Both the position numbers and the translations under genes were made by a program. Of a stretch of 64,000 nt of DNA, positions 1 to 12,564 are shown piece after piece (the first letter of the stretch is position 1; each line of letters begins with the position of its first letter). The stretch is taken from the NCBI GenBank assembly GCA_963734535.1, contig CAVTHS010000008.1, positions 448,001 to 512,000 on the forward strand, read 5' to 3'. This stretch comes from an uncultured Chloroflexia bacterium (lineage in GTDB: Bacteria; Chloroflexota; Limnocylindria; Limnocylindrales; CSP1-4). Under the pieces are notes generated by a model. That model made no database searches. It had not been told where the DNA came from and saw only the letters and a program-made list of their open reading frames with translations.

Positions 1-2
1 GT

Positions 3-587
3 GGCTACCTTCAGCTCGAGCAGCCGTTCCGTTGGCTCCGGTCGCTGACGGTCGACGGACGATCAATCGACGTCGAGCTGGATCTGCTCGCCCCTATCAC
101 GCCGCGAACGGCATCCGACCACCGGCACGAGCGGATCGGCGGAGAGCCGCTGGCCCGCCGGACGGAGGGCGCCGAGCTCGTCCGGATCGGCCGTGTCGAG
201 CGCGAACTCGAAGGTGTGCTGCCCGACGGGCGGGCGAACCGAGTGGCGGTCCGCGTCGCCACACCGGCGGCCCTCGTGATCCTCAAGGCGCTGGCGATGG
301 GTCAACGGGACAAGCCGAAGGACGCCTACGACATCGACTACCTCCTCCGCCACGTCGGCGTCAAAGGGGTGGCGGCCGGGGTCGCCGAATTTGGCCAGCT
401 CGAGCCGGTCAAGAAAGCCCTGGGCGTCCTGGCCGAGAAGTTCAGGTCGATCGATGCGATCGGGCCGGCGAGCGTGGCCCTCTACCGGCGCGTTCCGCTC
501 GGCAGTTCGGAGGCCGACCAACTCCAGGCGCTCGCCTACGCCCGCGTCGATCAACTGTTGCGACGGCTACAGGACGAGACGTCCTGA
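3..587 (+). CDS. Nucleotidyltransferase-like protein (AbiEii/DUF1814-like), 5'-truncated by the window edge
   Basis: Frame is open from position 3. Contains IDVELDLL and the C-terminal 'RVATPAALVILKALAMGQRDKPKDAYDIDYLL' (K..A...R...KD..D) motif. Confidence 0.6.
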   Translation, partial: GYLQLEQPFRWLRSLTVDGRSIDVELDLLAPITPRTASDHRHERIGGEPLARRTEGAELVRIGRVERELEGVLPDGRANRVAVRVATPAALVILKALAMGQRDKPKDAYDIDYLLRHVGVKGVAAGVAEFGQLEPVKKALGVLAEKFRSIDAIGPASVALYRRVPLGSSEADQLQALAYARVDQLLRRLQDETS

Positions 588-2094: not shown

Positions 2095-2721
2095 TCAGGA
2101 GGGCTCTGACGGCGAGAGCGCGAACCATCCCTGCGTCTCGGCGAGCGTGACCAGCTCTGTCCGGCTGAGGACTCCGTAGCGCCCGAACAGGCGCCGGAGG
2201 GAGCTCTCCACGCCGCGCGTGCCGATGCCTAGGCGAACCGAGACCTCATCGTTCGAATGGCCGCTCCGGACGAGCCGGATGACCTCCAGCTCCCGGTCCG
2301 AGGGTGGTCGAGGCGCGTGGGAGGCGCCGTGCGACGCGGACGTGGCGAACGCAGTGCCGCCCGCCGCCACGCGGCGAAGGGCCGCCACGATCTCGGGGAC
2401 GCCTGCGGTCTTCGGCAGATAGCCTGCGGCTCCAAGCTCGAGCGCACGCTGGTGGAACGCGGGGTAGTCGAACGAGCTGAAGAGAACGACCGCCGGACGG
2501 TCCGGTCGATCGCGGAGCCCTCGAAGGATCTCGAAGCCGCCGGGCTCGCCCTGGAGCTGCACGTCGCACAGCACCACCGAGGGTTGGAGCTCGCCGGCAA
2601 GTCGGAGCGCCTCCTCCACGTCACCGGCGACCCCAACGATGTCGATGTCGGTCTCCCGATCGAGGAGGGCGGCCAGGCCCGTCGCGGTCGACGGGTGGTC
2701 GTCGATCACGAGAAGGCGCAT
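2095..2721 (-). CDS. NarL/LuxR-family response regulator (ComA-like)
   Basis: REC domain (IDDH, CDVQL, YLPK) plus LuxR HTH (SDRELEVIRLVRSGHSNDEV). ATG overlaps the kinase TAA. Confidence 0.92.
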   Translation of the reverse strand: MRLLVIDDHPSTATGLAALLDRETDIDIVGVAGDVEEALRLAGELQPSVVLCDVQLQGEPGGFEILRGLRDRPDRPAVVLFSSFDYPAFHQRALELGAAGYLPKTAGVPEIVAALRRVAAGGTAFATSASHGASHAPRPPSDRELEVIRLVRSGHSNDEVSVRLGIGTRGVESSLRRLFGRYGVLSRTELVTLAETQGWFALSPSEPS

Positions 2722-4193
2722 TACGCCGGCCACCGAAGAAGTACCATCGTCCCACCGCCCGGCCGCGCCCCGATCTGGATGACGGCGCCGATCGCGGCCG
2801 CCCGGCCCCGCATGTCGATGAGACCCAGGTGGCCCGCGCGGAGCGCCCGCTGCTCGTCTCCGGCCTGGATGCCGACGCCGTCGTCTCTCACCTCGAGCTC
2901 GGCGTGGCCAGCGTCCACGTCAAGTCGAACCCGGATAGTCCGCGGGCGCGCGTGGACCAATGCGTTGTCGAGCGCCTGCTGGCAAATGCGATACGCCGCG
3001 AGCTCGACGTCTCGTGGCGGACGTGCTTCCGACCCGAGCGGCGCGTTTTCGACGTCCAGCTCGATGCGAACACCGGTCCGGGCCTCGACCTGCTCGACCA
3101 GCCCCTCGAGCGCGGGCACGAGCCCGAGCTCCTCGAGAACGCTCAGCCGCCGATCACCCATTAGGTCGCGGAGGTCCACGGCGATCCCGCGCAGCCGCTC
3201 GGCGGCGTCGACGGCGGAGCCTCCCTCCTCGATGGAGCGGATCGCAGCCGAGAGATCGGGGAGGACGTCCGCGTGAAGCTCGGTGGCGAGTCGAGCCCGC
3301 TCGCGCTCGATGGCCGTGAGGCGCGTCCGGGTTCGGCCGGGCACGAGCTCGTCGACGACCAGGCCCAGCGCTACGGCCGGTGCCAGGGTCGACAGGCCGG
3401 CTCCCGAGCGTGCTCGCGCGCGGGCGAACGCCGAGGCGACGGTCGCGGAGAATGCCACGGCAGCGATGCCGACGGTCAGGACGACTGACAGGTTCCGAAG
3501 GGCGACCCAGTCGTCCTGCGCCGTTGCATACGACACGGCCCAGCCGACGAGGTAGGCCGCGACCGCCCCGATCGCGGCGAACCGGGCAATACGTGCCCTC
3601 GGGCCCGCAGCAGCGACCACGTACAACGCTCCAACGACCGGTCCGGCCACCTCGATGGCCAGGCTGAGCGGCGGATCGACGACGAGGGTCGCGGCGAGCG
3701 ACGCCAGGATCGGCGGCAACAGGAGAAGCCACCAGGCGACCGACGGCACGACGCGGGAGGCGAGGATCGCGAGGCCAAGGGCCAGCAGCCCGGCGATCAG
3801 GGGTTGCGGTTCTGGTGGCAGGTCGTGGCGCTGGACCGTGATCCGGGCGACGCCGTCGGTGATCAACATCGATTCCCAGTCGCCGGACGGGAGCACGTCC
3901 GACGGGCTGATCCCGATGACCTCCATCCCGGGGCGAATGCCGCCGATCCAAGCGATGCCCCCAGGCGAGACGGTCGTCACGAGCCAGCGGTCGTCAGGCT
4001 GGTGCGTCACGCCGATGCTGAGCGTCGGCATTCCGACCAGGACCAGCCAGCCAAGTGCGAGCAGCGAGGCGATCGCAATGCCGATGGCCACGCCGAGGGC
4101 GCGGGTCGGCCGGGCTGTGCGGATCTGGGCGTCTCCCGGTGCTGCTAAAGACACGGTCGTTCCCTGCTTCTTGGCGGATCGGCCTCCGATCAT
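2721..4193 (-). CDS. Membrane sensor histidine kinase with PDZ-like extracellular domain (ComP-like, HisKA_3); start uncertain
   Basis: PDZ-like 'WLVTTVSPGGIAWIGGIRPGMEVIGI', several TM helices, H-box ERARLATELHA, N-box QQALDNALVHA, DDGVG and GHLGL. Confidence 0.88.
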   Translation of the reverse strand: MIGGRSAKKQGTTVSLAAPGDAQIRTARPTRALGVAIGIAIASLLALGWLVLVGMPTLSIGVTHQPDDRWLVTTVSPGGIAWIGGIRPGMEVIGISPSDVLPSGDWESMLITDGVARITVQRHDLPPEPQPLIAGLLALGLAILASRVVPSVAWWLLLLPPILASLAATLVVDPPLSLAIEVAGPVVGALYVVAAAGPRARIARFAAIGAVAAYLVGWAVSYATAQDDWVALRNLSVVLTVGIAAVAFSATVASAFARARARSGAGLSTLAPAVALGLVVDELVPGRTRTRLTAIERERARLATELHADVLPDLSAAIRSIEEGGSAVDAAERLRGIAVDLRDLMGDRRLSVLEELGLVPALEGLVEQVEARTGVRIELDVENAPLGSEARPPRDVELAAYRICQQALDNALVHARPRTIRVRLDVDAGHAELEVRDDGVGIQAGDEQRALRAGHLGLIDMRGRAAAIGAVIQIGARPGGGTMVLLRWPA

Positions 4194-4234
4194 ACGGGCG
4201 TTGAGATGGCTCGTCGTACGGACCAATCCGACCG

Positions 4235-4465
4235 TGACGTGATCCCACGCCGCCCGCCTAGCGTGATTCCACGCCTTGCATCGGCGCCGACAGGCTCGAC
4301 AGTGGTGGTGCGTCCCTGACCACCGGAACCGCAGTCGAGGTCGCGCGCCATGCATGGATCCAAAGGTCGTCGAGGGCGTTGGGTGATCGGATGGGCAGTG
4401 CTGGGCCTCCTCGCGCTGCCGGTGACGGTCTCGGCCGCACCAGCCACGAATGGGGGGTCGGCCCT
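4235..4465 (+). repeat. Cassette leader repeat, copy 1 (promoter plus 5' part of the crystallin-like gene)
   Basis: Aligns by eye with 5985-6215 and 9190-9420, then diverges abruptly at about 4465. Confidence 0.9.
4238..4303 (+). promoter_or_regulatory. Twin CGTG-N4-CACG dyads plus TTGCAT-16bp-GACAGT promoter (copy 1)
   Basis: CGTGATCCCACG at 4238 and CGTGATTCCACG at 4262, 24 bp apart, abutting the putative -35. Confidence 0.65.
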
Positions 4466-4493
4466 GAGCGCTGCTCTCACCCGATCCCGGTGA
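4350..4493 (+). CDS. 47-aa signal-peptide ORF, truncated paralog of the crystallin-like genes
   Basis: MHGSKGRRGRWVIGWAVLGLLALPVTVSAAPATNGGSALSAALTRSR*, with the same GAGG SD and ATG as copies 2 and 3. Confidence 0.55.
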   Translation: MHGSKGRRGRWVIGWAVLGLLALPVTVSAAPATNGGSALSAALTRSR

Positions 4494-4682
4494 CAGCCGC
4501 GCTGGCTAACCGCGCGACGTCGTCAGCTCCAGTCGGACCGGTTGTCGGCGTCCCAAAGGAGGGGTCCTCAAGAGAAGGGGACAACGGCGTTCCTTAGGGG
4601 ACGGGACTCTCCACTTGCTCCGCGGCGCACGACTGCGGGCACAACTTCACGGCACCAGGTAGATCCATCGAGAGGTGTACTC

Positions 4683-5228
4683 GTGAGAATTCGACGCGCG
4701 ACGGTTCTGTCGCTCGCCATGGCCGCCGCCTTGCTGCTTCCGGCCGCGCCGGTGGCGGCCACTTCACCTGCGTCGTCGATCATGTCCGTCACGGTCAACA
4801 GCCACCAGCTGCCCGATGGTACGCGAGTAGTTCTTAGCAAGGTGTGGACGACGAGCCCGGCCAATGCGATTCCGGCTGCGATCACGCCGATGTCCGCCGG
4901 GCAGTGGCACGCCGGATGCAATATGACCGGCTGGAGCGGCACCAACCGAATCTGGACCTTCACTGTCTGGCAGGACTTCTGGTCGAATGGGTCCTACATC
5001 ACGTACTTTCCGGACCCGCAGCCGGACGGGACGGGTTGGTTGGGCTGGGTCCAGAACTCCACCCCGCCTCCAACACACTGGTGGATCTCGTATCCGTACG
5101 CGGGCACCGCCTCGGGCAGGTACTCCTTCACGTACTACACCATCTACGGCCAGCCAGGGTCCTCAACCTCGGGTTACGTTCAGATCTACGTCAACTACCC
5201 AGGCACGTGGAGTTGTCAAGGCGCTTAG
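4683..5228 (+). CDS. Secreted aromatic-rich hypothetical protein (putative beta-rich, two Cys)
   Basis: GTG start after GAGG; signal peptide RIRRATVLSLAMAAALLLPAAPVAA; mature part rich in W, Y, T and G. Confidence 0.75.
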   Translation: MRIRRATVLSLAMAAALLLPAAPVAATSPASSIMSVTVNSHQLPDGTRVVLSKVWTTSPANAIPAAITPMSAGQWHAGCNMTGWSGTNRIWTFTVWQDFWSNGSYITYFPDPQPDGTGWLGWVQNSTPPPTHWWISYPYAGTASGRYSFTYYTIYGQPGSSTSGYVQIYVNYPGTWSCQGA

Positions 5229-5442
5229 TCCCGAAAGAGGCCCGCACCGAGCCCGCGGTTGGAGATGTCGTCCGGGCGTCGAATCATCGGGCGCCTTGGA
5301 TAGTTCGTTCCGCCACTGGGGGTTCGGTTCGAAGTCCCAGATCGAGGCGATCGGATCGTAGATCCGATCGCCTCGTTGAGCCGGAGCGGAGGCGCGGATC
5401 AATCGGCGCCTCTGCTCCGGTCGATCGAAAGGACGGAAGCGA

Positions 5443-5739
5443 ATGTACGACGGATCGATTAGCAGTCTTGTGGGTGCAGTCCTGTATGTGGTCGCGCCTG
5501 TTCTCCTGGTCGTCGTCTTGCTCTTGTTGCTCAGGGCGGTCATCGCGGGCGGGATTCGTGACGGGTTGCGAGCCGCGCGGACAGGCGAGGACCCGGACAC
5601 CATCCTGAAGCGGCGGTACGCCTTGGGCGAGATTGATGAGTCCGAATTCCAGCGTTGCCAGAGACTGCTGTCTACACCCCAGCATCCCTCATCCGACAAC
5701 AGCTCGCCGGGCGAGCATCCGTCGGCGCTCGACCCCTGA
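5443..5739 (+). CDS. Small membrane protein with SHOCT domain
   Basis: TM helix followed by 'DPDTILKRRYALGEIDESEF'. Confidence 0.75.
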   Translation: MYDGSISSLVGAVLYVVAPVLLVVVLLLLLRAVIAGGIRDGLRAARTGEDPDTILKRRYALGEIDESEFQRCQRLLSTPQHPSSDNSSPGEHPSALDP

Positions 5740-5984
5740 TCTGGCGTGGCCACCTTCACGACGACCGGCAAGGCAGCCGGCAACGTCCCGGGGCGCTCTC
5801 GGACGGGCGTTCCTGGACGCGGGAACAGGTGTGGACTCTGGGGAGACGCGACGTCCTGGGCCATTCGAGATGGGCACGACCAATCCGCGCCCAGCTGCCC
5901 ATGCGACCTCGCAGGGGTCGCCTCGGCTCGTTCGGGTCATGCCGACACCCCAAAGGCCGCCGGCCAGCACGGGCGAGTCAACCG

Positions 5985-6655
5985 TGACGTGATTCCAAGC
6001 CGTCCGGCAGGCGTGATCCCACGCCTTGCATCGGCGCCGACCGGCCTGACAGTGGTGGTGCGTCCCTGACCACCCCAACTGCAGTCGAGGTCGTGCCGCC
6101 ATGCATGGATATCAGGGACGTCGACCCTGCTGGGTGATCGGATTCGCGGTGCTGGGCCTCCTCGTGCTGCCGATGACGGTCTCGGCCGCGCCGGCCACGA
6201 ATGGGGCGCCGGCCGTCTACCTCGGTGGCCAGCGGATCGAGGGCCGCGCGGCAGCCAACCTCTTCTGTCACGACCGGGACTACCCCGTCATTCGCTGCTT
6301 CCGAACGGCAGCCGACCGGGCCACCAAGGAGGGCGGGCTCGCCGGGGCGCCGGATGGCGCGGTCGCCGGCAGCGTTGGTCAGCCCAACCTCCTGAGCCCG
6401 TACGTCCGCTGGTACCGCGATGCCAACTTCAGCGGTCCGAGCTTCGAAGCCTATGTCTACGAGCCGGACCTGGCCGCGATCGGCTGGGACAACCAGATCA
6501 GCTCCTTCCTGCCCCTCAACGGCGGCCATCCTCTGTGGTGGACGGGGCCGAACCGGACCGGCAACAGGTGGGACTGGGGCACCGCTTCGGCGGCCACCCT
6601 CGGCGCTGCCAACAACCAGTTCTCGAGCACGGACAAGGGCTGATCGGGGGTGAGG
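5985..6655 (+). repeat. Cassette leader repeat, copy 2 (promoter plus full crystallin-like gene)
   Basis: Near-identical to 9190-9860; dyads at 5988 and 6012, TTGCAT at 6026, GACAGT at 6048. Confidence 0.95.
6101..6643 (+). CDS. Secreted beta/gamma-crystallin-fold protein (peptidase inhibitor I36-like)
   Basis: Signal peptide plus two Greek-key-like motifs: 'WYRDANFSG...DLAAIGWDNQISS' and 'WWTGPNRTG...TLGAANNQFSS'. Confidence 0.75.
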   Translation: MHGYQGRRPCWVIGFAVLGLLVLPMTVSAAPATNGAPAVYLGGQRIEGRAAANLFCHDRDYPVIRCFRTAADRATKEGGLAGAPDGAVAGSVGQPNLLSPYVRWYRDANFSGPSFEAYVYEPDLAAIGWDNQISSFLPLNGGHPLWWTGPNRTGNRWDWGTASAATLGAANNQFSSTDKG

Positions 6656-6690
6656 TCATGCGACGTGGGGCACGGTAGAACGGGAAGCAA

Positions 6691-7641
6691 ATGGAGATTC
6701 CGATGAGATGTTCCTCCACGCATGTCCGAGCCGCGGGCCACTGTCACCCGCGCTTGCTCGGGCCCATCGCCGCCGTGGCGCTGCTCGCCATGACCGTCGG
6801 GTCGGTGAGCGCCGCCGGGCCAACCGTCGGCGCAGCCGGCGTGATGCGGTCCGCTACCTTCACCGACGACATGGCCCCGGCTTGGAAAACGCAGCTCTTG
6901 GCCCTACACACGAAGCGAGACGCCGGCATGATGACGGCGGCTGATGCCACCGCATGGAACAACATAATCGACGCCCAGGGGCTCGACCCGGCAGCACGGA
7001 TCTCAACAGCCGGTCCTTCGGCATCGGGCGGCATCGTCCCGATGGCGACTTCACGGGACCTCACCGGTACCCAGCAGCCGCAGACGCAGACGTACTACTG
7101 CGGACCCGCGTCGGGCCAGAGCATCGTGCTCGCCTGGCATAACGTGAATCCCGTCCTCTACCCGACGGCGTCGCAATGGGACGGCGCCAGCCTCAGCCAG
7201 GCACATTTGGGCACCGCAACCTACACCAACGCCGACAATAGTCACAGCACGGACTGGGGCGACGGCGACATGACGAGGGCGCTGAACCGGTGGATCTTCA
7301 ATGGCGGGGTCACGTACGTGCAGTACACGCCCACGTCTGCTGCGGCGCTCGCCAGCCACGTCACGACCGACATCGACCTCAACATGATGATGGCCGCGGG
7401 AACGGTGGAGTGGATCAATGGGAGCCACTTCAACTCCCACCCGAACCTGACCATCTACCACTGGACGACGATCCGCGGATACACGAGCTCAGGTTCGACG
7501 CTCGACCTCCAGGACTCCGCCGCCAACACGAGCGTCCTCGGCAGTGCCTGGGCAAACGTGCAACCGTATTTCTCGATGAGCTCGTCGAACGGCTACTACT
7601 ACCAGACGCAGAACGGCGCCACGTTCGGCATCGCCTGGTGA
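6691..7641 (+). CDS. Secreted C39-like (papain-fold) peptidase
   Basis: Signal peptide; QTQTYYCGPAS (Cys), YHWTTIRGY (His), LQDSA (Asp). Start codon uncertain. Confidence 0.8.
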   Translation: MEIPMRCSSTHVRAAGHCHPRLLGPIAAVALLAMTVGSVSAAGPTVGAAGVMRSATFTDDMAPAWKTQLLALHTKRDAGMMTAADATAWNNIIDAQGLDPAARISTAGPSASGGIVPMATSRDLTGTQQPQTQTYYCGPASGQSIVLAWHNVNPVLYPTASQWDGASLSQAHLGTATYTNADNSHSTDWGDGDMTRALNRWIFNGGVTYVQYTPTSAAALASHVTTDIDLNMMMAAGTVEWINGSHFNSHPNLTIYHWTTIRGYTSSGSTLDLQDSAANTSVLGSAWANVQPYFSMSSSNGYYYQTQNGATFGIAW

Positions 7642-8885
7642 GGTATCGGCTCGCCGCGCTGGCCGCCAGCGCGTGCCTCGTTGCGTCCTGCGGTGGGCCA
7701 GCCTCTCCTTCCGTGACGGGCGCGTCGACGCTCGTGCCCGTCACGCCCACGCCCGCCACGGCTACTCCCGTCGCCGCGACGGCCAGCGCCACTCCCTTCG
7801 TGACCGCGACGCCGCGGCCGTCGCCCGACGCCGCGGCCTGCCGCCTGTCTGACCCGGTCGGGGTGACCGCGCCGGCAAGCCTCACACGCTTCACTCGCGT
7901 CGGCGGGGGGGTGATCGGCGTCACCGACCGGGGCGAGTTGATCGTCGCCCAGTCCCATCTGCTCGGCTTCACCGACACCCTGAGTCTGTTCGACCCGCGG
8001 ACGGGGACCGTCACGCCGGTGGTCTCGCGGCCGACCCCGAAGAACCCGGAGGCGGCGACGTCCGCGATCGGGGGATTCGTAACCGGGAACGCCGACTGGG
8101 TCGTGTGGGAAGAGGTCGGCTTCTGGCTCGAGCACTCGGACTGGCGGATGTGGGCGCTTGACCGCGCCACCGGAAAGGTCCGCGAGGTCGCCTCGTTCGA
8201 ACCCGGTACCGACGGTCAGGTCGCACCAGGCTGGGCGAGCGATCTATCCCTGCTGGGCGACATCGTCACCTGGTCGGCCCCGGCGATGCTCGGTCCGAAC
8301 CGGGCCGGGCAGCGGATCTACGTGGCGGACCTGCGCGCCGGGACCGTCCGGCGGCTCGACATGGAGGCGAACTGGCCTTCGATGATGTCCGCGCTCGAGA
8401 TCAGTGCCGCCACGGAGGTGGGCACCGACCCCGCCACCGGCAAGGTGCTCGGTCTGCCGACGACGATCAGCCTTCCCGGCGGCAAGGCGACGCCGCAGGA
8501 CTGGATGAAGCCCGCGGTCCTCCTTTCTCAGGCTTCCAGCCCAGCGGGAACGGTCGTGACGCGCCTGCTGAGGCAGGCGACGGCGGACGACTCCGTGGCC
8601 ATCGCCGATGTGATGACGCACGATGCTTCCGGACTCACCCGGACGTTCGCCCTGCCGAACGGCTGGGGACCCGTCGTAGCCGGGCTGGGCTTCCTCGCGT
8701 GGGCCGATCAGCAGCACCTCTGGATCCTGCCGTCCGGGCAGGCCGAGCCGACGGTGCTCCTCGAGACGCCGGACGACTCAGCCCAAGTCCAGGTACTCGC
8801 CAATGGGGCCTTCGTGTTCTGGCGATCTGTCGGCCACGAGTACGACTGGACCACCAACAGGGTGGCGAGCGTGATCTGCCCGTGA
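7638..8885 (+). CDS. Lipoprotein, putative beta-propeller
   Basis: GTG overlaps the upstream TGA; lipobox LVASC, P/T-rich linker, propeller-like segments (DWVVWEE...WRMWALDRATG). Confidence 0.75.
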   Translation: MRYRLAALAASACLVASCGGPASPSVTGASTLVPVTPTPATATPVAATASATPFVTATPRPSPDAAACRLSDPVGVTAPASLTRFTRVGGGVIGVTDRGELIVAQSHLLGFTDTLSLFDPRTGTVTPVVSRPTPKNPEAATSAIGGFVTGNADWVVWEEVGFWLEHSDWRMWALDRATGKVREVASFEPGTDGQVAPGWASDLSLLGDIVTWSAPAMLGPNRAGQRIYVADLRAGTVRRLDMEANWPSMMSALEISAATEVGTDPATGKVLGLPTTISLPGGKATPQDWMKPAVLLSQASSPAGTVVTRLLRQATADDSVAIADVMTHDASGLTRTFALPNGWGPVVAGLGFLAWADQQHLWILPSGQAEPTVLLETPDDSAQVQVLANGAFVFWRSVGHEYDWTTNRVASVICP

Positions 8886-9189
8886 CGGCGGGCAAGTGAC
8901 CACCCGCTCGCCGTAGCTGACCCTCGTGCGCTCGCGCGAGGGCGCTTCATTGCACCGATGTCGCCTCCAACTGCCGCGGGACCCCGCACGCCCAGGGCCG
9001 CGATCGTGTTCGTCGAGTGACGGCCCATGGGCGGCTGCACGTGCCGGAACCGGAGGCGTACAAGCTTGGGTGTCCTCGACAGTCTGTAGATCGGCCGCCG
9101 GCATGCTCACTGACGCCCTCTCAACGGCGCTGCATGACCATCGGAAACGTCTCGGGATCGGCTCGACGCCCTGCAACTGGTCCCGACCC

Positions 9190-9860
9190 TGACGTGACTC
9201 CACGCCGTCCGGCAGGCGTGATCCCACGCCTTGCATCGGCGCCGACCGGCCTGACAGTGGTGGTGCGTCCCTGACCACCTATACCGCAGTCGAGGTCGCG
9301 CCGCCATGCATGGATATCAGGGACGTCGATCCCGCTGGGTGATCGGATTCGCGGTGCTGGGCCTCCTCGCGCTGCCGATGTCGGTCTCGGCCGCGCCGGC
9401 CGCGAATGGGGTGCCGGCCGTCTACCTCGGTGGCCAGCGGATCGAGGGCCGCGCGGCAGCCAACCTCTTCTGTCACGACCGGGACTACCCCGTCATTCGC
9501 TGCTTCCGAACGGCAGCCGACCGGGCCACCAAGGAGGGCGGGCTCGCCGGGGCGCCGGATGGCGCGGTCGCCGGCAGCGTTGGTCAGCCCAACCTCCTGA
9601 GCCCGTACGTCCGCTGGTACCGCGATGCCAACTTCAGCGGTCCGAGCTTCGAAGCCTATGTCTACGAGCCGGACCTGGCCGCGATCGGCTGGGACAACCA
9701 GATCAGCTCCTTCATGCCCCTCAACGGCGGCCATCCTCTGTGGTGGACGGGGCCGAACCGGACCGGCAACAGGTGGGACTGGGGCACCGCTTCGGCGGCC
9801 ACCCTCGGCGCTGCCAACGACCAGTTCTCGAGCACGGACAAGGGCTGATCGGGGGGGAGG
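9190..9860 (+). repeat. Cassette leader repeat, copy 3
   Basis: Near-identical to copy 2; dyads at 9193 and 9217, TTGCAT at 9231. Confidence 0.95.
9306..9848 (+). CDS. Secreted beta/gamma-crystallin-fold protein (I36-like), paralog of 6101-6643
   Basis: Differs from the first copy at 8 of 180 residues, 6 of them in the first 36 residues. Confidence 0.75.
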   Translation: MHGYQGRRSRWVIGFAVLGLLALPMSVSAAPAANGVPAVYLGGQRIEGRAAANLFCHDRDYPVIRCFRTAADRATKEGGLAGAPDGAVAGSVGQPNLLSPYVRWYRDANFSGPSFEAYVYEPDLAAIGWDNQISSFMPLNGGHPLWWTGPNRTGNRWDWGTASAATLGAANDQFSSTDKG

Positions 9861-10091
9861 TGAACCACCGCTGAGGAGGTGCCGCAAGCCTGATCTTCCG
9901 ACAATGATGTCCCAGTCAGATTCACCGGTCCTGAAGTGCGTACATGCGTTCGGAGCCGTGCGCGGAGGATTGTTCGCCGGTCGATGTTCTGCCGAACGGG
10001 CGACGATCGCCACTTTGTCAATCCGGAAGGGAGTCCCCCAGCAGGTCGACGAAGGCTCCTTCTGGTTGTTGTTACGAACAAGGAGTCAACA

Positions 10092-11471
10092 ATGTACAGA
10101 ACGATAGCTGCGTGGCTTCTCGTCGTCACAACCGTCGGTTCGGCGGTGACTTCACTAACGCCTTTGCGGGTGCAGGCGGGTGCACCCGACGCGCTCAGCA
10201 GCCCCGACGTGAGCCATTCAAAGACAACCGATTGCACAACCTTGACGGCTGCCGGACAACAGGATCTCGTCTGTCGCGACCTGCTGTTTCGACTCACGTT
10301 CGGCTACAACACCGACCTCGCGGTGATCAAGGCCCTGCGAGCTGATCCGGCGTCCGCGCCTTCGATCAAGACATATGGCATCGCATTGACACCCGACGAG
10401 GCCGCCGACTTCGGAGCGCGCCAGGCAGAGCAGGACATGATCGCGAACCTGCGCGAACGAGCTGCCGGCCTTGCCGGGTTCGCAGGTCTCTACGTCGACC
10501 AGGCCCATGGGGGCCAGGTCGTGCTGCTCGTGACGCCATCCGACACCGATGCGGCGGCGACGCTGTTGGCACAGGCGCAAACGCGCCTCTCAGGCCGAGT
10601 CGTCACGGCAACGCGAACGTACACAGAGCTCGAAGGCACGGCTGCCGCAATCGAAGGCCGCCGGCTTGTCATCGAGGCGGGCGGGTCCACCATCACCTAT
10701 CTCGGCATCGGCGAGGTCGAGAACCAGGTCGTCGTGGGCATCGACCCTTACTCTGAGGTCGTGGCAGCGGCTCTATGGAAGGCATTCGGAGACTCCGTCC
10801 AGACCATCGCGCGTGTGGCGCCCGAGCCTGCGACGTGCAGTCGAGACAATTGCGCCAATCCGCTGAAGGGCGGGCTGACGATCTACGACAGCGCGGGCGC
10901 GATGTGCACGTCGAACTTCGTCTACAGAGACGCGTCCAGCAACCCCTTTCTCGTGACCGCTGGCCACTGCGCATCTGGGTCGTTCCGCCACAACGGCGTC
11001 TCCATCGGGTCGACGGCGTCAGGATCCCGTCAGTGGTACGACTACTCGCCGGCGGACGCCCAGGCCATCACGATCGCCAGCGCGCAGAAGAGCAATTACG
11101 TCATGACAGATACTGGAGTACCTCCGACGCTCGATTTCGTGACCGGCCGCCGAACCAGTGACTACGTGGGAATGACGGTGTGCACACAGAGTTGGCGGGT
11201 CGGCCGCAGCTGCGGAATGATCTCCGGCATCGAGATCACGGTCTGCTACGGCGACCCGTGCTCGATCCACATCACCCATATGCGCCAGGCGACGTTCGAA
11301 GCGTACGCTGGCGATAGTGGAGGGCCTGTGTTCGACTATTGGGCGCTGGGGCTGGAAGCGACTGGAATCATGTCCGGCGCCACCTCTGACGCGCACATCA
11401 ACTACTACAGTCCGATCTGGTACGTCACCGGCGGGCGGACGCCATGTCTCAACAGCTCATGCTCGAGCTAG
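10092..11471 (+). CDS. Secreted S1 (alpha-lytic/streptogrisin-like) serine protease with prodomain
   Basis: AAGGAG SD; signal peptide; catalytic motifs FLVTAGHC, ADAQAI and GDSGGP. Confidence 0.9.
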   Translation: MYRTIAAWLLVVTTVGSAVTSLTPLRVQAGAPDALSSPDVSHSKTTDCTTLTAAGQQDLVCRDLLFRLTFGYNTDLAVIKALRADPASAPSIKTYGIALTPDEAADFGARQAEQDMIANLRERAAGLAGFAGLYVDQAHGGQVVLLVTPSDTDAAATLLAQAQTRLSGRVVTATRTYTELEGTAAAIEGRRLVIEAGGSTITYLGIGEVENQVVVGIDPYSEVVAAALWKAFGDSVQTIARVAPEPATCSRDNCANPLKGGLTIYDSAGAMCTSNFVYRDASSNPFLVTAGHCASGSFRHNGVSIGSTASGSRQWYDYSPADAQAITIASAQKSNYVMTDTGVPPTLDFVTGRRTSDYVGMTVCTQSWRVGRSCGMISGIEITVCYGDPCSIHITHMRQATFEAYAGDSGGPVFDYWALGLEATGIMSGATSDAHINYYSPIWYVTGGRTPCLNSSCSS

Positions 11472-11974
11472 ACGCCCGCCTGCCGGGCGCGGCGCCTCTT
11501 GCAACGGCCGCGTCGACGACGACCGGCCAGGCCTGTCGTGTCCCGTCTCTCGTCCTGCTCGTTGCGTCCATATTGGCCTCTGCAACTGCTTGCGTTGACC
11601 GGGGACCGAGCCCATCGCCCTCCCCCTCCGGATGGCCGACTAGGACGCCCTTCCCACTGCCATCCGGTGCGGTCGATGTCCCCATCCCTACTGCTTCGCC
11701 CGCGACATCCGAGCCCGCGGTCTGGGCCTGCGCAGCGTCCATCCTCGCGCCCGTGACCGTGGAATGGAACGCCGCGAGTCACGTCCTCAGTTTCGGTGGC
11801 CGCAGCCTTATTTGGCCACGGGGCTTCTCAGCACGGGAGTACAACGGCCGCCTCGAGATCGTGGAGCCGGACGGCAGCGTGATCGGCCGAGCTGGCGACC
11901 TGCTCAGCGAACTCGGCGGCGACGATGGCGGGATTTGCTCGGTGAATCTCAAGGTCTACGGGCCCGCCCAGTAG
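11444..11974 (+). CDS. Putative lipoprotein (start uncertain)
   Basis: Hydrophobic LVLLVASILASATAC lipobox-like stretch, P/S-rich linker, 'WPRGFSA...DGSVIGRAGD' domain. Confidence 0.65.
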   Translation: MSQQLMLELDARLPGAAPLATAASTTTGQACRVPSLVLLVASILASATACVDRGPSPSPSPSGWPTRTPFPLPSGAVDVPIPTASPATSEPAVWACAASILAPVTVEWNAASHVLSFGGRSLIWPRGFSAREYNGRLEIVEPDGSVIGRAGDLLSELGGDDGGICSVNLKVYGPAQ

Positions 11975-12118
11975 GTGCCGTTGCCGCGATCCGCCCTGTT
12001 CGAGCGCGCCAACAGATGGCACCGGCCCGTGTGGAGCGTAGCGAGTCGGGTTTCGGGCCCGCCTCGAGTTGAGCACGATCCGGTGTCGCGCTCATCGTCA
12101 GCCTGGCGTCGTGTATGG

Positions 12119-12154
12119 CGTTAGGGAGCGCGTTACGGAGCGCGTTGAGGAGCG
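12119..12154 (+). repeat. Three tandem 12-bp repeats CGTTxxGGAGCG
   Basis: cgttagggagcg cgttacggagcg cgttgaggagcg. Confidence 0.8.
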
Positions 12155-12564
12155 CGACAGTGTCGTGACCCTCAACACTCACTCGGCCCACTCGCCTCTC
12201 CCGACGTTCAGGGCGCCGAGCCGGGCCGCCCTCCCGAACAACCCTCGCGGGGGGACCGCACCGGGGGAGGTCCGTGTTCAGTAGTGCGGGCAGTACCTCA
12301 AGAGCGACGTCCCGGGCCCGCGTCCTCGGCCGAGATCCGGGGGTCTACTGGCATCCGCGCGCTTGAGTCCTGTCAGCCCTACGACCGTCCCCCGCGGCCA
12401 GTCATCTTGATCGTCGCCGAGCTGCCAGAACGCCGTGTTCGGCTCGCGAAAATTATGCGCTGAAGGCCAGTTTCACGCTCTCGGCCGCAGCGCCTAACTT
12501 GGCCAGAATCAGCCAGTTCGTGCGGGGATTCTGAGTTCAGAGCACAGCGCTCGACAAAGGGAGA

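Follow-up and report, generated by a model that had tools for sequence, protein, structure and literature searches.

A predicted signalling module pairing a PDZ-domain kinase with a secreted crystallin-family protein, and its repeated unit at the head of secreted-enzyme genes in an uncultured Chloroflexota bacterium

In the genome of an uncultured Chloroflexota bacterium, one control region and one gene, for a secreted crystallin-family protein, stand together three times on one strand, ahead of three unrelated sets of genes. The genes of a single two-component system point away from this array. The locus raises the question of why a promoter and its first gene should be held constant while everything behind them changes. 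We addressed it in a stretch of 64,000 nucleotides (nt), hereafter the window (positions 448,001 to 512,000 of contig CAVTHS010000008.1, assembly GCA_963734535.1), in which the locus occupies positions 2095-11974. The host genome is a 3.2-Mb metagenome-assembled genome (MAG) of 14 contigs, 89.9% complete with 7.1% contamination; the window lies inside a 553-kb contig, and its GC content is 70.8%. Comparison with related genomes makes it fairly probable, in our judgement, that a lineage-specific signalling module drives operons for secreted hydrolases at this locus, and that the array grew by homologous recombination at the repeat.

A repeat search of the window found direct repeats on the plus strand at 4228-4463, 5978-6655 and 9183-9860, divergent from the kinase and regulator genes, just where a preliminary description of the stretch had placed them. 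They resolve into three families: 4228-4346, 5978-6096 and 9183-9301 (87-88% identity), 4346-4463, 6097-6214 and 9302-9419 (84%), and 5981-6280 with 9186-9485 (95%). The whole assembly has the 678-nt unit at just three places, where identity is 100%, 97% (675 nt) and 85% (234 nt); a short match elsewhere (58 nt, 78%, E 8e-5) is probably due to chance. Each repeat contains a pair of 16-nt palindromes at 24-nt spacing. A weak promoter-like stretch comes next, and then a gene for a secreted protein of 180 amino acids (aa); in copy 1 this gene is only 47 codons long. In copies 2 and 3 the likeness runs from 5978 and 9183, respectively, to about 12 nt beyond the stop codon of the crystallin-family gene. 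Outside these limits identity is random on both sides, so the abrupt end of the likeness behind the gene, already reported in the preliminary description, holds for both full copies. Copy 1 shares with the others only the control region and the first ~38 codons. Its gene (4350-4493, plus strand), described earlier as truncated, indeed encodes a signal peptide and a few further residues before the stop after codon 47, with 73% identity over residues 1-40. The intact genes of copies 2 (6101-6643) and 3 (9306-9848), on the same strand, encode proteins of 180 aa that are 96% identical. The genes behind the three repeats, referred to below as cargo, are unrelated to one another.

The palindromes have the form GGCGTG-ATyC-CACGCC and start at 4236 and 4260, 5986 and 6010, and 9191 and 9215. 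The first pair, found by pattern search, spans 4236-4275 on the plus strand and reads GACGTGATCCCACGCC and AGCGTGATTCCACGCC, with 24 nt from centre to centre. In control blocks 2 (5978-6100) and 3 (9183-9305), also on the plus strand, the pairs lie at 5986-6001 and 6010-6025, and at 9191-9206 and 9215-9230, followed in each case by the promoter-like stretch. The pattern matches six times in the window, where 0.22 matches are expected by chance, and all six fall within the three blocks. In the genome as a whole, all five exact matches and one of the seven one-mismatch matches belong to these blocks; the other six one-mismatch matches are isolated singles. The reversed pattern, used as a control, matches twice in the genome, and no further pair of palindromes was found in the genome outside the three blocks. 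The claim that each cassette opens with one common promoter block was thus well founded. As the palindromes occur nowhere else in the genome as a pair, co-regulation of the three cassettes by the adjacent two-component system is the natural reading of these sequences.

The second palindrome of each pair abuts the hexamer TTGCAT, which is followed 16 nt on by GACAGT and then by a conserved GCGTCC. In copy 1, this promoter-like stretch and the 5' leader, as read from the sequence, extend over 4276-4349 on the plus strand, with TTGCAT at 4276-4281, a 16-nt spacer, GACAGT at 4298-4303, the GCGTCC element and a GAGG ahead of the ATG. We infer that TTGCAT-16 nt-GACAGT is a weak, activator-dependent promoter. 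Block 1 is located in the 195 nt that separate the kinase start codon from the first repeat gene, and therefore could act in both directions. The opposite strand of the promoter block also holds a long open frame (for example 5689-6102, 137 aa; minus-strand frames at 4155-4355, 5978-6102 and 9183-9307 as well), conserved only because the control block is conserved. This frame gives spurious kinase matches in similarity searches wherever the block occurs. A 544-aa version of the kinase frame, reaching 4355, was rejected as an artefact of the same kind, its extra 67 codons running backwards over the promoter block.

The two-component system is encoded on the minus strand. The response regulator, of NarL/LuxR type, occupies a 212-aa frame at 2095-2733; its start is probably the ATG at 2721, which touches the kinase stop codon. 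Pfam matches to Response_reg (E 2.9e-19, 69.7 bits) and GerE (E 6.8e-9, 35.7 bits) are both above cut-off, and the best NCBIfam models are all NarL-class, all far under their cut-offs. The sensor histidine kinase (2721-4154, 477 aa, GTG start at 4154) is 100% identical to the called protein P0190 (477 aa). It contains HATPase_c (E 4.1e-11, 43.7 bits, above cut-off) and gives matches of the NarQ/NarX/UhpB/LiaS class; HisKA_3 was not matched in Pfam at E up to 0.01. The order of its parts is a first transmembrane helix, an ectodomain of ~77 residues (~42-118), several more transmembrane helices, the H-box and HATPase_c. His294, in an ELHADV motif, is invariant across 26 kinases. By these sequence features, kinase and regulator are a NarL-class two-component system.

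The kinase ectodomain matches PDZ_6 weakly in the window protein (E 0.013-0.03, 14.5-15.7 bits, below the cut-off of 27). Among 28 ectodomains from related loci, PDZ_6 was matched by 16 (best E 3e-8), PDZ by four and PDZ_2 by three. A profile of these 28 sequences run against the PDB ranked the PDZ domains of DegQ, DegP and site-2 proteases first, at 6.4e-6. Judged by its relatives, in which the signal is clear, the ectodomain is probably a PDZ domain, the only part of the kinase outside the membrane, and the preliminary description of a PDZ-type kinase with a NarL-family regulator agrees with these results.

No profile of Pfam or NCBIfam, Crystall included, was matched above threshold by the crystallin-family protein of the window. 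A word-indexed search returned 43 relatives, all from metagenomes, and an exhaustive profile search returned 334 cluster representatives (E up to 0.001). Most are 165-195 aa long and match from end to end; in a few long multi-repeat proteins the match is confined to the C-terminal half. In a Pfam scan of 110 family members at E up to 0.01, 60 matched Inhibitor_I36, 42 Crystall and 19 Crystall_3. A first structure model, from 38 close relatives, reached a predicted local distance difference test score (pLDDT) of 61, and its Foldseek matches were not significant. The model built on the alignment of the 110 members reached 85.1 overall and 95-98 in both folded parts.

In the latter model, residues ~100-180 superpose on the Ciona crystallin 2bv2_B with a VIA Z score of 14.8 and a root-mean-square deviation (rmsd) of 1.4 A for 80 of 83 residues. 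In all, 22 chains were found at Z of at least 8, nearly all of them crystallin-fold domains; they include spherulin 3a (1hdf), Protein S (1nps), a Flavobacterium johnsoniae crystallin domain (3hzb) and clostrillin (3snz), all at Z 13-14. Foldseek aligned the domain to 3hz2 with E 1.3e-6 and a TM-score of 0.80 on the target, and the family profile run against the PDB also ranked crystallins first (E 0.0097). By this model, residues ~100-180 are a true beta-gamma-crystallin domain with two Greek keys, and the earlier label of a crystallin-like gene has a fold behind it. The Greek-key motifs carry D-N-Q-I-S-S and N-D-Q-F-S-S, which we take to fit the Ca2+-binding motif of microbial crystallins, N/D-N/D-x-x-S/T-S. 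Ahead of the crystallin domain, behind the signal peptide, residues ~37-80 are modelled as a small strand-helix domain. It holds the most conserved motif of the family, CHDxxYPxIRCF, with two invariant cysteines (the Cys56-Cys66 pair in copy 2). This domain gave no match of its own, in fold searches that barely probe it.

The preliminary description had treated the crystallin-family gene as a plug-in leader, the constant head of exchangeable cassettes. The distribution of the gene speaks for another role. A profile search of 301 genomes of the window's Chloroflexota family found it in 47, with one match in 31 and two to four in 16; within the window's genus it was present in one of 18 other genomes drawn. 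Among 401 genomes drawn across the phylum, full-length matches came from the window's family only, and other families gave partial matches, to the crystallin domain only. At 29 loci of other genomes, the kinase gene lies divergently upstream of the crystallin-family gene in every case (27 by tblastn, the other two by a frame with the same transmembrane helix and PDZ motif). The same pairing is found in L014, L015, L017 (two modules) and L018 and in the metagenome contigs L078, L079, L082, L083 and L085-L089. On gene order, kinase, regulator and crystallin-family protein are a conserved three-gene module, which the preliminary description missed: the gene is the conserved partner of the kinase-regulator pair, and so more than a plug-in leader.

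Conservation extends to the operator. The same palindrome pairs, at the same 24-nt spacing, stand ahead of the crystallin-family genes in L079, L081, L082 (three pairs), L083, L021 and L022. In more distant members the palindromes covary, GGGGGGAATCCCC and GCGGGATTCCCCGC being examples. For these distant members, looking upstream of the gene for any two similar 14-mers gave too much noise in GC-rich DNA, and a specific palindrome pattern was used instead. Within 300 nt upstream of the gene, palindromes of the form GGG-AT-CCC have a density of 3.4 per kb, compared with 0.26 per kb elsewhere in the loci. At least one is present in 18 of the 29 loci, and pairs 23 nt apart in four.

Cargo, by comparison, is not constant. 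Across all loci, 73 frames behind the gene were scanned with Pfam: ABC_tran was matched four times, DUF3892 three times, and SHOCT, Trypsin and hydrogenase twice each, the rest being singletons or without a match; no common cargo family emerged among them. S1 proteases stand behind the gene also in L038, in L047 and, with four genes, in genome G208, and in relatives the unit is followed by an Amidase_6 gene and other secreted proteins. From this survey, the module is the constant part and cargo an addition in some lineages. Reading of frames also placed a small protein directly behind the crystallin-family gene in L033 (2184-2495), L045 (1175-1498, minus strand) and L051 (1931-2293). Genes for an ABC-transporter ATPase and permease follow it in L016 (2010-4707), in L018 (5207-7062) and among the downstream frames of L025 and L026, an arrangement that recalls sensor-linked export or detoxification modules.

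The mechanism that we favour would run as follows. The PDZ kinase would sense something outside the membrane and phosphorylate the regulator. The phosphorylated regulator would bind the two 16-nt palindromes that abut the weak -35-like hexamer, and so turn on the crystallin-family gene together with the genes transcribed behind it. In the window genome, one signal would drive three operons. The array itself would have arisen at the constant unit, for example by a single crossover integrating the unit with foreign cargo, and would later have suffered deletions such as the cut in copy 1. For the crystallin-family protein we see three possibilities. It could act on the kinase as feedback modulator or co-sensor, in the manner of CpxP for CpxA or ExoR for ExoS; it could be the main structural output of the system, dependent on Ca2+; or it could inhibit or help the proteases. 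As the gene is strictly paired with that of the kinase whether or not proteases lie nearby, the third possibility is less favoured than the other two.

Several observations weigh against this account. A consensus scan of 4100-12400 found no sigma-70-type promoter and one terminator-like site, on the wrong strand. Under the pattern used, 11 of the 29 distant loci lack the GGG-AT-CCC motif, and the enrichment of the palindromes may be due in part to the AT-richer composition of intergenic DNA. Many distant loci have ordinary neighbours behind the crystallin-family gene (hydrogenase, ABC transporters, regulators), so that the notion of cargo fits part of the family only. The C-termini of the crystallin-family proteins are short and variable and lack a hydrophobic consensus; a canonical PDZ ligand was looked for there and none was seen, which argues against the simplest mode of PDZ binding. 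Finally, the copy next to the kinase is the broken one in the window genome, which excludes a need for that particular copy.

How, then, did the unit come to be multiplied? Within the window's subclade the operator-promoter-crystallin unit is repeated, and the contents of the arrays differ between close relatives. Two or more blocks or copies lie on one contig in L014, L015, L017, L059 (genome G208), L079 and L082, and multiple copies are also found in MAG G153. L015 has two identical copies, each including the first 272 codons of the kinase gene, in the order full kinase gene, block, crystallin-family gene, cargo A, kinase 5' part, block, crystallin-family gene, cargo B. L017 has an inverted second module besides an intact copy and a remnant; in L059 two copies are accompanied by a 69-nt remnant; L082 has three operator pairs in 8.4 kb. 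The preliminary description had held that single-copy leaders with fixed cargo in relatives would speak against it. The gene is in fact single-copy in 31 of the 47 genomes, often with no recognisable cargo; in the window's subclade the unit is multi-copy, with differing contents.

MAG G153, of the same genus, is ~88-90% identical to the window in shared DNA, and its array is ordered differently. Both of its contigs L021 and L022 start within the crystallin-family gene, at an identical base, as expected for short-read assembly at a true repeat. In the first part of the array, the 3' end of the gene at the contig start is followed by a 264-aa secreted protein and by a block with a gene truncated near codon 43. 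The second part consists of 770 nt of unique DNA, the 3' part of a C39-like peptidase gene with its lipoprotein gene, and then the window's right flank; L022 thus carries a truncated peptidase gene and cassettes reordered relative to the window. In L078, whose regulator is 91.5% identical to that of the window, an intact crystallin-family gene stands beside the kinase, at the position of copy 1, followed by a homologue of the first cargo gene. The truncation of copy 1 in the window would hence be a later loss. The left flank of L078 is unrelated to that of the window from ~88 nt past the regulator stop codon.

Between copies 2 and 3, 10 of the 123 bases upstream differ but only eight of 181 codons, and no change is synonymous. 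Six of the eight changed codons lie within codons 9-36, in the signal peptide. These non-synonymous changes, mostly in the signal peptide, point to gene conversion or to selection on signal peptides. Simple divergence after duplication would account for the overall pattern less well than gene conversion that homogenised the coding part. No recombinase gene was found inside the array, the nearest being a fragment of 143 aa of a tyrosine recombinase ~3.5 kb beyond the regulator gene. An inverted-repeat scan of 4400-12400 (nine pairs) revealed no hairpins at the cassette borders; the borders at 5740-5977, at 8886-9182 and from 11975 onward have short GC palindromes only. Since the structure of L015 is the expected product of a single crossover, we take a crossover of this kind, with circular DNA carrying a homologous segment and new cargo, as the most likely route of array growth; it would not require a recombinase. 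The view of the leader as a recombination anchor therefore stands in part: copies 2 and 3, the L015 duplication that includes the kinase 5' part and the order in L022 all bear signs of recombination, but the gene is not a mere plug-in. That the cargo behind the constant unit varies was equally seen earlier, and it differs both between the cassettes and between close relatives.

The cargo looks acquired, being compositionally odd and rare: seven of the ten 1-kb windows of lowest GC in the 64 kb fall within 4501-11500. The tyrosine-recombinase fragment lies at 8148-8579 of L095, ~1.4-1.9 kb left of the window start, and covers profile positions 36-170 of 172. The left flank, including window positions 1-587 and 1008-1673, further contains an AbiEi/AbiEii type IV toxin-antitoxin pair and a frame for a Phd/YefM-type antitoxin, and looks like the remnant of a mobile island. 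L095 also encodes, at 3365-6607 on the minus strand (window -6635 to -3393), a regulator of 1080 aa that combines an AAA_16 ATPase domain with a LuxR/GerE helix-turn-helix at its C-terminus. On contig 2 of G208 (L062), a perfect 254-nt duplicate of the regulator 3' end (9028-9281 and 10294-10547) stands just before an S1 protease gene, on the far side of the module. Cargo may thus also be added behind the regulator gene, with that gene providing the homology.

All cargo genes in the window are on the plus strand. Cargo 1a (4683-5228) encodes a secreted protein of 181 aa that had no match in Pfam, NCBIfam, PDB or PADLOC; homologues stand behind the crystallin-family gene in L021 (35% identity) and L078 (36%, E 6e-18). 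Cargo 1b (5443-5739) is a small membrane protein whose C-terminus resembles SHOCT (E 2e-4; 21.4 bits, under the cut-off of 27), and a SHOCT protein occupies the same position in L021. No hairpin in 4400-12400 is stronger than the perfect 15-bp inverted repeat with a 3-nt loop (5343-5375; CGAGGCGATCGGATC and GATCCGATCGCCTCG) that lies between the two genes and may serve cassette 1 as terminator, attenuator or processing site.

Cargo 2a (6691-7641) encodes a putative secreted C39-like cysteine peptidase of papain fold, 316 aa long. The match to Peptidase_C39_2 (PF13529; E 0.024, 15.6 bits) is below the cut-off of 24 and covers profile positions 8-142 of 143; a PDB sequence search gave no match. 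In a language-model atlas the protein scored 0.97, with 202 of 256 features in common, and the ten best named clusters were all Peptidase_C39_2. It carries YYCGPAS and, further on, YHW. Cargo 2b (7638-8885) is a lipoprotein of 415 aa with a lipobox, whose GTG start overlaps the peptidase stop (GTGA). It has no family match in Pfam or PDB sequence searches, and the atlas gave only a lead to a PD40-type beta-propeller. The C39-like gene is present in three of the 301 family genomes, and the pair with its lipoprotein recurs in another genus, in G066, with 45-63% and 52% identity.

Cargo 3a (10092-11471) encodes a secreted S1 serine protease of streptogrisin/alpha-lytic type with an N-terminal pro-region. 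The Trypsin match (27 bits) is above the cut-off of 20.6, and the PDB entry 2sfa was found with E 2.6e-5, with TAGHC and GDSGGP aligned; Pro_Al_protease (E 0.0028, 18.1 bits) is below its cut-off of 23.4. By these sequence features the protein is a member of the S1 family, in the streptogrisin/alpha-lytic group, with the catalytic Asp placed by alignment. Cargo 3b (11444-11974), a small lipoprotein whose gene overlaps the 3' end of the protease gene, has no family match in Pfam or PDB sequence searches. This pair recurs, again overlapping, in G208 (S1 protease 32%, E 1e-32; lipoprotein 43% over 54 aa, E 2e-5). The three pairs are those named in the preliminary description, the S1 protease above its family cut-off, and the C39-like and SHOCT assignments below theirs, with the atlas backing the former.

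As the enzyme-lipoprotein pairs recur in other genera, they are not accidents of the window genome. Their overlapping genes look like those of an enzyme and a cognate inhibitor or immunity protein. The array could then serve antagonism, the secreted enzymes being weapons (hydrolases of cell walls or surface proteins), the overlapping genes for lipoproteins or membrane proteins conferring immunity, and one sensor controlling them all. This would be compatible with the explanation that we favour and would add a purpose to it. The order of genes, with each secreted hydrolase followed by an overlapping lipoprotein gene, the recurrence of both pairs in other genera, the patchy occurrence and low GC of the cargo, and the Amidase_6 gene and other secreted proteins behind the unit in relatives all agree with such a use. 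However, no known toxin, immunity or delivery domains were found, and the partner proteins have no match in PADLOC, Pfam or PDB. In PADLOC, eight of nine proteins were without a match, and the regulator alone weakly matched SduA, through its receiver domain; a known anti-phage defence system was thus rejected. Secreted proteases could equally be used for feeding. We regard antagonism as a tenable purpose of the array, although not a probable one.

A second proposal concerns the crystallin-family protein itself. It, or a fragment of it released by the cargo proteases, may be a ligand or negative modulator of the PDZ kinase. The resulting autoregulatory loop could be positive, like peptide quorum sensing, or negative, like that of CpxP, and extra copies would raise the dose. 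The strict divergent pairing and the common control region, kept across sequences that have diverged to 26-45% identity, would follow from such a loop, and the most conserved part of the protein is the N-terminal motif found in this family only. PDZ domains bind peptides, according to PMC3353171. Against the proposal stand the variable C-terminal tails, and adjacency is equally expected for a plain target gene. Complex prediction of ectodomain residues 42-118 with the mature protein scored 0.00, which speaks neither for nor against binding. On balance, we hold a signalling role of this sort to be rather unlikely.

Third, the protein may be a protease inhibitor of I36 type or a folding helper, made together with each protease and protecting the producer, which would explain why each protease operon has its own copy. 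In the window, each of the two intact copies is followed by a peptidase gene; S1 proteases stand behind the gene there and again in G208, L038 and L047; and more than half of the family members scanned match Inhibitor_I36. The window protein, on the other hand, stays under the cut-off of that family (PF03995; E 0.015, 15.6 bits; cut-off 21.1). Its model resembles the one solved I36 inhibitor, SMPI (1bhu), at Z 2.6 and rmsd 3.4 A, compared with Z 10-15 for ordinary, canonical crystallins. In L024-L053, a protease was found by tblastn behind the gene in two of 29 loci, compared with a kinase adjacent in all 29, and the intact copy in L078 precedes cargo 1a, which is not a protease. An inhibitor or helper role is therefore doubtful.

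Assembly error is the weakest alternative and highly improbable: the completeness and contamination of the MAG leave room for collapsed or chimeric joins, a danger raised in the preliminary description, but the copies differ from one another (97% and 85% identity), have unique flanks and lie inside the 553-kb contig, at least seven other assemblies, made independently from other organisms, carry arrays of this kind, and the two G153 contigs starting at the same base behave as a true multi-copy repeat does in a short-read MAG.

None of the parts in our preferred reading, a module driving hydrolase operons, is of a new kind: they are the two proteins of a two-component system, PDZ and crystallin domains, peptidases of the S1 and C39-like types, and lipoproteins. 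It is well known that two-component systems can have a secreted accessory or target protein, and a sensor pair with a neighbouring secreted target is itself a known design. Systems of the ComP-ComA type, in which a multi-pass kinase of the NarL-partner class works with a LuxR-type regulator (ComQXPA gene order, ComA box), offer one comparison, in layout. As in the ComP-ComA type, the kinase has a transmembrane helix, an extracytoplasmic PDZ domain and more transmembrane helices, its gene is followed by that of a NarL/LuxR-type regulator, and a gene for a secreted product lies beside it. Here, in place of a small modified peptide, the product is a crystallin-family protein of 15 kDa that is folded and has a Sec signal peptide, and a ComQ-like enzyme for modification is absent. 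PMC3353171 notes, in mutans streptococci, a PDZ-bearing ComP-like kinase whose parts come in the same order.

The cpxP gene, divergent from cpxRA, offers another comparison. According to PMC4160245, CpxP is a secreted accessory protein of CpxA-CpxR. For ExoR, with ExoS-ChvI, PMC10659215 has a protease and a lipoprotein act on the accessory protein, and these are the same two kinds of protein as the cargo in the window. In both systems, as here, a secreted protein is encoded beside the sensor-regulator pair and is probably under its control. The folds are unrelated to the crystallin domain found here, and those systems belong to Proteobacteria, this one to Chloroflexota.

To our knowledge, bacterial crystallins are mostly without a known role. 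The C-terminal 80 residues of the modelled protein superpose on microbial Ca2+-binding crystallins (Protein S 1nps/1prs, clostrillin 3i9h, M-crystallin 3hz2) and on Ciona 2bv2 with Z 13-15 and rmsd 1.4-1.8 A. The family differs from these proteins in its extra conserved N-terminal domain with a cysteine pair and in its strict genomic pairing with a PDZ kinase; full-text literature searches on crystallin or I36 with two-component systems found neither feature described. The array resembles integrons and polymorphic effector-immunity arrays in its tandem units of a constant part and variable cargo, in contents that differ between close relatives, and in the toxin-antitoxin genes and integrase remnant nearby. 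It differs from them in that each unit brings its own promoter and a whole constant gene, the borders have no attC-like hairpins and the constant part is not the N-terminus of the effectors. An integron was rejected on the absence of hairpins at the cassette borders and on the distant 143-aa fragment being the only tyrosine-recombinase sequence nearby.

Within the literature searched, three things appear to be new: a PDZ-ectodomain kinase in fixed partnership with a secreted crystallin-family protein, the limitation of this pairing to one Chloroflexota family, and the multiplication of a whole operator-promoter-gene unit as the head of different secreted-enzyme operons. A bolder version would make kinase, regulator and crystallin-family protein a new type of protein-based extracellular sensing loop, in which the PDZ domain would read the state of the crystallin (folded or unfolded, Ca2+-bound or free, intact or cut). 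Separately, the unit would be a recombinase-free, integron-like landing pad into which DNA that carries it could insert by one crossover, and strains would collect and swap self-regulated pairs of secreted enzyme and partner. We think this improbable as a whole.

Altogether, the fixed genetic link to a sensor kinase gives the crystallin family a testable role. The arrays show that a regulated promoter and its first gene can be copied, bringing foreign secreted enzymes under an existing signal without a dedicated recombinase. The hosts are uncultured freshwater or soil Chloroflexota whose ecology is poorly understood, and a set of secreted proteases and partner lipoproteins under a common sensor would be relevant to whether these bacteria scavenge protein or attack their neighbours.

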